From Escherichia coli (GTDB taxonomy: Bacteria; Pseudomonadota; Gammaproteobacteria; Enterobacterales; Enterobacteriaceae): a stretch of DNA of 64,000 nt. The DNA lies in assembly GCF_016026235.1 (NCBI RefSeq), contig NZ_CP065613.1; one strand, 5' to 3'. The notes beneath the pieces were generated by a model. The model saw nothing but the letters and a program-made list of their open reading frames with translations, searched no databases and had not been told where the DNA came from. This document shows, one piece after another, positions 51,024 to 52,376 of the stretch; the stretch's first letter is position 1, and each line of letters starts with the position of its first letter. The translations under genes and the position numbers were made by a program.

Positions 51024-51052
51024 GACCATACATAAAAAAGCCGGGGATAATT

Positions 51053-52348
51053 CCTGAGGAATCCCCAGAAAACAAGACAGGCATAGTGAGATGTGATCTA
51101 ATTGATTGTGCTAACAATTTCAAGGAGATCACCACTATGCCTGCACGTTCATTATGCCAAAATTTCCTTAACAACATACTGGCCCCTTTGCATCTTTACC
51201 GTCAAAAATCACTGATTGACGCAACTAATGCTGTAATAAATGGCGCTTCCCTCACACTTACCAGTATCGGGCGTCATTTAACCGGTACGGCATCAGTTAA
51301 AAACAAAATAAAGCGGGTGGATCGACTGTTGGGGAATCGACATTTGCAAAATGAGGTTTCCACCATTTTTCAGCGAATTACCCAAAAGATTACGCGGGGA
51401 ATGTCTCGTGTTGTGATACTCATTGACTGGAGTGCTTATCATGCCTCTCGTTTTCAGCTTTTGCGGGCAAGCCTGGCATGTGACGGGCGTTCTTTACCGT
51501 TGATGAGTTGTGTCGTTCCATCATCACAGACAGCGAATGCAGATGTACATGAGCGTTTTCTGGAATCGCTTGCTGAGTGCTTTTCCCCCGGGACTGATGT
51601 CATTGTTATTACAGATGCCGGTTTTCAGGGGCGATGGTTCCAACAGCTCCGCTCCCGTGGCTGGACCTATATTTGCCGGGTACTGGGCAATCATTATTAC
51701 AATGTTGGTAATGGCTGGGAAAAGGTGTCGGACTCAGGCACAAAAGCATCAACGACAGCAATTTATTTAGGTGAAGGCCTGCTGGGTCGAGATAAAAATG
51801 CACAACATGAAGGGCATTTTTATCTTTATAAAAGTAAGCCTAAAGGTCGTTGATTTAAACGCTCGAAGGAAAGAGCAACCAGACCATCGGTGACGGCTAA
51901 AGCTCGTACTGCCGGGAAATCACCATGGTTTATTTTCACAAACAGTACTGAGTTCTCGCCAAAACAGGTAATGAAATTATACAGCCGTAGAATGCAAATT
52001 GAGCAAAATTTCAGGGATGAAAAAAATCCTCGCTGGGGATTTGGACTACGGTTTGGTGCCAGTCATTCATCCGGGCGGGTCACGGTATTGAGTCTGATCG
52101 CAACATTAGCCAGTATCATTATGTGGTTAAGCGGTTTCAGCCTGGAAAACAAAGGGATACATCATAAATATCAGGCAAATACAGTGAAGCACAGGCGAGT
52201 CATCTCGTTATTAAAACTGGCGGAGAATGTGATTCGACATTCTCCACTCATACTAAACACACTGTCACTTGACGCAGGGCTGAAAGTTCTACAGCAACGG
52301 TATACCAATATGATAATGGTTTACTAAATTTTCTGGGGATCCCTCAGG
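51053..52348 (+). mobile_element. IS186-like insertion sequence (IS4 family), copy 2, in the nupC terminator hairpin; about 11-bp target duplication GGGATAATTCC
   Basis: Same terminal inverted repeats and identical transposase ORFs as copy 1; flanks reconstitute AAAAAGCCGGGGATAATTCCCCGGTTTTTTT. Confidence 0.85.
51137..52327 (+). CDS. IS186-like transposase with in-frame TGA at 51851-51853
   Basis: Identical protein segments to copy 1; ORFs 51086..51853 and 51890..52327 share a frame. Confidence 0.75.
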
Positions 52349-52376
52349 GGATAATTCCCCGGTTTTTTTACGCCTG

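Follow-up and report, generated by a model that had tools for sequence, protein, structure and literature searches.

ISEc60, an IS10-type element of the IS4 family, inserted in the shared nupC/pdeA terminator hairpin of Escherichia coli

The window analyzed here, a 64-kb stretch of Escherichia coli DNA (64,000 nucleotides of RefSeq assembly GCF_016026235.1, contig NZ_CP065613.1), carries an intact nupC gene on the + strand (49821..51023; 400 aa, 0 differences from NupC of E. coli cq9; stop codon at 51021-51023). An intact pdeA (yfeA) gene on the − strand (52377..54566; 729 aa) converges on a terminator that it has in common with nupC. Reading the interval 50700-52700, we found that the end of nupC (51023) is followed by GACCATACAT, an A6 run and GCCGGGGATAATTC, and then by a 1.3-kb element that starts with CTGAGGAATCCCCAGAAAA; the opposite terminus of this element, TTTTCTGGGGATCCCTCAG, is followed by GGGATAATTCCCCGGTTTTTTT, and the pdeA stop codon lies 7 bases further on. 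The element occupies 51054..52347 on the + strand (1294 bp) and is bounded by a left terminal inverted repeat, CTGAGGAATCCCCAGAAAA (51054..51072, + strand), and a right one which, read inward, is CTGAGGGATCCCCAGAAAA (52329..52347, − strand). Target-site duplications of the sequence GGGATAATTC flank it on the left (51044..51053) and on the right (52348..52357), the left one forming, together with the A6 run and GCCG, the left remnant of the nupC/pdeA bidirectional terminator (51034..51053). Another copy of the element, 100% identical to that beside nupC and inverted relative to it, lies inside fryC (43123..44416, − strand) between 10-bp duplications that read GAGAATTTCC on the + strand (43113-43122 and 44417-44426). 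The 10-bp duplications are perfect at both copies. The arrangement at nupC is a simple insertion with target duplication inside a terminator hairpin, as a sequence-only reading of this DNA had proposed, and we confirmed the presence of the element, of its flanks and of the hairpin reconstructed from them.

Deleting the element together with one repeat predicts the empty nupC-pdeA site AAAAAAGCCGGGGATAATTCCCCGGTTTTTTT, and the corresponding interval of E. coli cq9 is exactly this allele (ACATAAAAAAGCCGGGGATAATTCCCCGGTTTTTTTACGCC / AAAAAAGCCGGGGATAATTCCCCGGTTTTTTT). A 600-bp probe across the site found it without interruption in 4460 of 5426 complete E. coli genomes. An empty allele of relatives lacking the hairpin had been named beforehand as what would speak against the insertion; the cq9 allele, being an exact match, contains it. 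In the empty site the GC stem starts 17 nt 3′ of the nupC stop codon and lies 7 nt from that of pdeA. Its RNA is predicted to fold at −22.6 kcal/mol (z −6.0) on the + or nupC strand and at −24.1 kcal/mol (z −5.6) on the − or pdeA strand, energies as low as which were reached by 0 of 200 shuffles, and a consensus terminator scan placed terminator-like sites on both strands. By these models the empty site is an intrinsic (rho-independent) bidirectional terminator-type hairpin with a GC-rich stem, a short loop and a U-tract, split by the insertion, and the textbook terminator reconstructed earlier downstream of nupC holds up. The G4-N6-C4 sequence in this hairpin is the sole occurrence of that pattern in the 64-kb window. 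The exact arrangement of the window, an insertion with both original flanks, was absent from the complete E. coli genomes that we searched.

Megablast against complete E. coli genomes returned copies with 99.9% identity over 1284 bp in 12 records, in which PGAP names the product “IS4-like element ISEc60 family transposase”. Most of the matches come from a group of human stool isolates, in which they are found on chromosomes as well as on large plasmids; the chromosome of strain FDAARGOS_943 has the element at ~38 places, and the window copy and a copy from that chromosome differ at 1 position in 1292 bp. The intact ISEc60 transposase (396 aa) matches the Pfam domain DDE_Tnp_1 (PF01609; E 1.8e-20) and the NCBIfam model NF033591 (360 bits), and the Y(2)R(3)E(6)K motif, YSRRMQIEQNFRDEK, is readable in its translation. 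It is 51.6% identical to the transposase of ISSfl1 and, over 372 aa, 36% identical to an IS10A-family transposase (E 5e-76). The ends of the element (CTGAGGRATCCCC) are also IS10-like: their first 14 positions match IS10A ends at 13, the IS10A-family copy ending in CTGAAGAATCCCC and CTGAAGGATCCCC and ISEc60 in CTGAGGAATCCCC and CTGAGGGATCCCC. Members of the IS10 subgroup are 1200-1350 bp long, have 5′-CT ends and typically generate a 9-bp duplication (PMC2266710). ISEc60, at 1294 bp with CTGAGG...CCTCAG tips, has the size and the ends of this subgroup, and like IS10/Tn10 it has the YREK motif and termini of the form CTGA-RG-RATCCCC. It departs from the subgroup in its duplication, which is not 9 bp; the length is 10 bp at 9 sites, comprising both copies in the window and 7 E. 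coli loci (with one fimbrial site represented twice among these loci), and 11 bp at 2 further sites. By these comparisons the element is ISEc60, a catalogued IS10-subgroup member of the IS4 family.

Where the element ends depends on the assignment of its outermost bases. If it is taken as TGAGG...CCTCA, the duplication becomes 12 bp, GGGGATAATTCC (51043-51054 on the left, with the terminal C counted as target), whereas tips of CT...AG, as in IS10, leave the 10-bp GGGATAATTC. We assigned the terminal C and G to ISEc60 because its ends then align with those of the IS10A family; further support comes from the 44 distinct flanks, all of which have C directly next to TGAGG, compared to only 75% with G at the symmetric position. 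Thus the 10-bp reading, with the element at 51054-52347, is better supported. The duplication noted in the sequence-only reading is real, although its proposed length of 11 bp (GGGATAATTCC) corresponds to neither boundary choice.

That reading had also called the element an IS186-like copy and had taken a G4-N6-C4 target as confirming this identity, an assignment that now retains practically no chance of being correct. In its favor, the nupC site is a perfect IS186 consensus (PMC5009759), 947 of 5426 genomes, K-12 among them, have IS186 in exactly this hairpin, and the element at nupC, at 1294 bp, is close in size to the annotated K-12 IS186C feature, at 1345 bp. Yet the resemblance of the ISEc60 transposase to IS186 InsL is confined to ~22 residues around the YREK motif (BLASTP, E 0.008); with IS4 InsG it shares ~31 residues around the same motif (E 0.007). 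The two transposases fall under different NCBIfam models, NF033591 for ISEc60 and NF033592 for IS186 and IS4, and on the latter ISEc60 scores 46.9 bits, under the 115-bit cut-off. The terminal repeats of IS186/IS421, CATAAGCGCTAACTTAAGGGTTG with 5′-CAT ends, are absent; the element at nupC ends in CTGAGGAATCCCCAGAAAA and CTGAGGGATCCCCAGAAAA, that is, in CTGAGG... and not in CATAAGCG... / CATAAGCGCTAAC, and over its length it is 99.9% identical to ISEc60. IS186 was therefore rejected on protein, end-sequence and nucleotide comparisons, leaving a kinship at the broad IS4-family level only. Clustering within this family sets the subgroups of IS10 and IS50 apart from those of IS231 and IS4 (De Palmenaer et al., PMC2266710), and IS186 has been placed in the IS231 subgroup (Lee et al., PMC5009759); the two elements thus belong to distant subgroups, with transposases unrelated outside the YREK motif.

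The same hairpin is used by three elements in different strains. IS186 occupies it in strain CUWW10 and in K-12 MG1655 (annotated IS186C, 2514273-2515617), where it duplicated GGATAATTCC, centred on the palindrome; a junction probe detected the IS186-nupC junction in the 947 genomes mentioned above. Strains 23CRST047, 23CRST049 and E686 carry IS4, a single-copy element in K-12, in this hairpin, where it duplicated GGGGATAATTCCC. No more than 19 genomes have a site that is neither empty nor taken by IS186. A few genomes carry IS4, for which the junction probe gives no exact count since it also picks up the IS186 junction at ~90% identity, the terminal repeats of IS186 and IS4 being similar (at the L003 and L004 junctions both contain ...TAA-GC-...-TTAAGG). 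IS186 inserts almost only at GGGG(N6/N7)CCCC, and K-12 has just 19 G4-N6-C4 sites (Lee et al., PMC5009759). The nupC terminator is a textbook IS186 site, and it is because the hairpin is a perfect IS186 target that IS186 is found there in K-12 and many other strains. The G-run, spacer and C-run had thus been rightly recognized as the target type reported for IS186. However, since IS186, IS4 and ISEc60 share one hairpin, the target type cannot name the element. ISEc60 resembles IS186 in belonging to the IS4 family and in using a G4 run separated from a C4 run by a spacer, but IS186 has CAT... ends and a spacer of 6-7 nt, compared to 4-5 nt for ISEc60. IS4 differs from ISEc60 in its length (1.4 kb) and ends (TAATGCC...), the transposases sharing the YREK segment only. 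As Mayaux et al. reportedly described in 1984, IS4 prefers terminator-like sites of the form AAA-N20-TTT.

To describe the target preference of ISEc60, we scored the 12 nt adjoining TGAGG in each flank against GGGGNNNNCCCC (GGGG-N4-CCCC), taking the 12-mers of the window as background. The flanks came from ten loci in E. coli and from two scans, one of metagenomes for a 28-nt end pattern and one of species-representative genomes for the 18-nt tip of the repeat. The 18-nt scan returned mostly relatives of the element (in Photorhabdus, Xenorhabdus, Kosakonia, Pragia and others), together with chance matches in unrelated phyla and no ISEc60 proper among the species-representative genomes; sites of ISEc60 itself came from the longer-pattern metagenome scan and the ten E. 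coli loci. Altogether, 39 of 44 distinct ISEc60-clade flanks match at six or more of the eight defined positions. The class matching at six or more, which includes both window copies at 6/8, makes up only 0.29% of window 12-mers. Among the ten E. coli loci, the duplication is a perfect 10 bp at seven (one fimbrial-operon site accounting for two of these) and 11 bp, with a 5-nt spacer, at two, and the duplicated targets at these nine loci are all of the GGG-N4/5-CCC type, for example GGGATATCCC in mscL, GGGTTTCCCC beside an Ibs toxin gene and GGGCTACCCC in the fimbrial operon. Thus, the flank comparison gives a well-supported target consensus of G|GGG-N4-CCC|C, with a spacer of 4 nt and not the 6 nt of the G4-N6-C4 pattern previously taken as the target type of this element.

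The G4-N6-C4 hairpin at nupC is only a partial match to this consensus. In the register used by ISEc60 it reads GGGG-ATAA-TTCC and the fryC site GGGA-AATT-CTCC, each agreeing at 6 of 8 positions, at the weak end of the observed range. The fryC site, with the flank GGAAATTCTC in element orientation, had been described as a weaker version of the nupC-site pattern, and this description stands. Across the ISEc60 clade the G-run always lies 5′ and the C-run 3′ of the spacer, with base identity conserved; 9 of 44 flanks also have an A-run upstream of the site, a ~3-fold enrichment over the background of 6%. In the searchable literature we found no description of target choice by ISEc60 or ISSfl1, only incidental mentions. 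IS10 has a preference that is likewise symmetric, GCTNAGC (PMC2744996); ISEc60 differs from it in the G4-N4-C4 sequence of its target and in its 10-11 bp duplication, compared to 9 bp.

The occupation of one hairpin by three unrelated IS elements could mean that what is recognized is DNA structure, such as an extruded hairpin, a cruciform or a terminator, and not base sequence, so that different IS elements would be drawn to one stem-loop. Palindromes are indeed frequent among the flanks of ISEc60 and its relatives, and the enrichment of upstream A-runs (9/44 flanks compared to 6%) would fit this view. In the ISEc60 clade, however, the bases on either side of the spacer are conserved in their identity and not in their complementarity alone. 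Moreover, palindromy is poor at the fryC and ampH-iprA sites (GGGAAATTCTCC, TTGGTTATCCCC), an A-run is missing from 35 of 44 flanks, and sister clades with the same repeat tip use sites of opposite polarity, which argues for evolvable base-specific contacts. We therefore consider recognition of structure quite improbable. Because base identity is conserved and several sites are poor palindromes, we infer that the target is read as sequence on duplex DNA by a symmetric transpososome, a reading that we favor over an extruded hairpin.

Alternatively, the site might be a hot spot through selection and not through targeting, if insertions there are harmless between convergent genes and the 947 genomes with IS186 descend clonally from one old insertion. 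The site does lie between two stop codons with nupC and pdeA both intact, and K-12 derivatives are over-represented among complete genomes. Counting IS186 orientations at nupC also gave no tally of independent events, other copies with similar G/C flanks passing the coverage threshold. This explanation is nevertheless unlikely, given at least three independent events involving three different elements within the same 14 bp. ISEc60 also lies in coding sequence at motif-bearing sites (fryC, mscL), and the motif preference of IS186 has been observed directly in mutation-accumulation lines, in which selection is minimal (PMC5009759). Targeting by sequence preference remains the reading that we adopt.

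Since the tips of the element are C...G, a full G-GGGNNNNCCC-C target is re-created at each ISEc60 junction. In two enteroinvasive E. coli replicons, the RMDEC364 chromosome (locus L152, from 3361271) and plasmid pCFSAN029787_01 (locus L157, 65506-67029), ISEc60 copies stand in tandem with exactly one 10-bp duplication, GGGATTTACC, between them. Sister elements that share the 18-nt tip and have diverged interiors are found in Photorhabdus, Xenorhabdus, Pragia, Serratia, Salmonella diarizonae and E. coli E69 (locus L085). These lie nearly always in palindromes of a C-run, 4 nt and a G-run, for example GCCCCCACGGGGGC or AAACCCGC-NNNN-GCGGG, and many of these opposite-polarity sites resemble terminators or REP-type repeats. 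We tentatively suggest, as a proposal about as apt to fail as to hold and perhaps slightly more so, that ISEc60, together with its close relatives, represents IS10-like elements whose G|GGG-N4-CCC|C preference and 10-bp duplication are possibly undescribed, the preference being convergent with the G4-N6/7-C4 one of the distantly related IS186. On the same proposal, re-creation of the full target at both junctions would explain the tandems in enteroinvasive E. coli; the sister clades use the mirror-image C-run...G-run palindrome.

The insertion is predicted to alter the 3′ ends of both neighboring transcripts. At the left junction, GGGGAU of the flank and AUCCCC of the repeat can form an RNA hairpin (−12.5 kcal/mol), but this is followed by AGAAAACAAG and not by a U-tract, and the terminator scan placed no + strand terminator-like site there. 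The left hairpin is retained, but 1.3 kb now separate it from the nupC U-tract, so that the nupC terminator can reasonably be predicted to be lost. By the same modeling, nupC and pdeA each keep a hairpin but lose the U-tract, and their transcripts should run into the element. At the right junction (52347..52369, + strand), the terminator scan identified a re-formed terminator-like hairpin, GGGGATAATTCCCC, followed by GG and T7 (−17.2 kcal/mol), which is lengthened by pairing of CTGGGGA in the repeat with TCCCCGG in the flank. A terminator-like hairpin with its U-tract is thus predicted to re-form at each exit junction, pdeA mirroring nupC on the other strand, because the duplication takes in nearly all of the palindrome and GGGGAT is present in the repeat tips; the sequence-only reading had overlooked the re-formed hairpin at the far junction. 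The likely outcome would be longer 3′ untranslated regions rather than unbounded read-through. A further terminator-like hairpin on the − strand (52220..52247), with an 11-bp perfect stem and then CAGTTTTAAT, a weak U-run, lies ~100 nt inside the right end. It is antisense to the 3′-terminal part of the transposase gene, positioned so as to halt transcription that comes in from the right end; in this model it could stop read-through from pdeA.

Transcripts reading through from nupC would be sense with respect to the transposase gene. As RNA, the interval 51024-51160 has a predicted minimum free energy of −45.1 kcal/mol (z −6.05) and contains a fold-back stem-loop (51078..51143, + strand), in which an arm at 51078-51099 pairs with 51126-51143, a segment that includes the Shine-Dalgarno region and the ATG at 51137. 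In 13 diverse relatives, 95% of the alignment cells of this stem are paired, compared to 24-45% when the partner is slid, and two pairs covary, one position occurring as CG, UA and AU. The support for the stem is mostly conservation with little covariation, and its 3′ arm extends over the conserved ORF start. The 5′ arm (GACAGGCATAG...TGATCT) is non-coding and is conserved in distant relatives. We predict that the stem buries the transposase ribosome-binding site and AUG in nupC read-through RNA, resembling the fold-back inhibition of IS10 in masking the transposase start. Davis, Simons and Kleckner reportedly described in 1985 that fold-back inhibition protects IS10 against external promoters. 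For IS200, masking of the start site has been shown (PMC4513863). An Rfam scan across ISEc60 for RNA-OUT or another family returned nothing meaningful, and no pIN- or pOUT-like promoter was identified in the element.

In this genome masking would be moot for transposase output, because both window copies carry the same nonsense mutation. The transposase gene beside nupC (51137..52327, + strand) is a pseudogene in which T at 51851 converts AGA (Arg239) to TGA (R239*); the identical change is present at the same element position, 798, in the fryC copy (at 43619). This is what distinguishes the window copies from the annotated ISEc60 copies, to which they are 99.9% alike, and in FDAARGOS_943 the transposase is intact at 396 aa. 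The shared mutation implies gene conversion, mobilization in trans of a dead copy, or a collapse of the assembly consensus. Either the window copies had transposed before gene conversion spread the mutation, or their mobilization occurred in trans.

The related strain FDAARGOS_943 has both insertions (loci L001 and L147; 5190500-5206387), with hybrid flanks and hybrid target duplications. One side reads nupC-ISEc60-'fryC-ypdF and the other pdeA-ISEc60-fryC'-fryB-glk. Relative to window positions 43123-52347, the segment from fryC' to nupC (6.6 kb between the copies) is inverted, as would be expected from recombination between two inverted ISEc60 copies. The window, in which the duplications match at each copy, shows the arrangement that preceded this inversion. 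Elsewhere in the window, the direct repeats at 54763-54965 and 57660-58065 are the tandem tRNA genes alaX/alaW and valU-valX-valY-lysV, an ordinary feature in K-12 order.

Overall, we are highly confident that the locus is best explained by insertion of ISEc60, following its own sequence preference, into the nupC/pdeA terminator. On this explanation the element entered the GC-rich stem-loop of the terminator common to these convergent genes by cut-and-paste transposition, and a staggered 10-bp cut duplicated GGGATAATTC. The site was presumably picked because the element itself prefers a G-run and a C-run separated by a short AT-rich spacer, a pattern that the nupC hairpin fits in part in the GGGG-ATAA-TTCC register. 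Recognition most likely takes place on double-stranded DNA through a symmetric transposase dimer, in the way that IS10 recognizes GCTNAGC.

ISEc60 was already catalogued and the site was known as an IS186 target, so that the insertion is ordinary though instructive and leaves knowledge of IS mechanism unchanged. What the analysis adds is the corrected identity of the element, the ISEc60 target consensus, and the finding that target type does not identify IS4-family elements, for the naming of which in annotation it is unfit. Across strains, the nupC terminator is empty or holds IS186, IS4 or ISEc60, a natural side-by-side comparison that could be used to measure the effect of each element on 3′-end formation of nupC and pdeA. 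The ISEc60 consensus, together with the self-renewing junctions of the element, would help to predict its landing sites, which would be useful in the Shigella-like and enteroinvasive E. coli lineages where ISEc60 multiplies.
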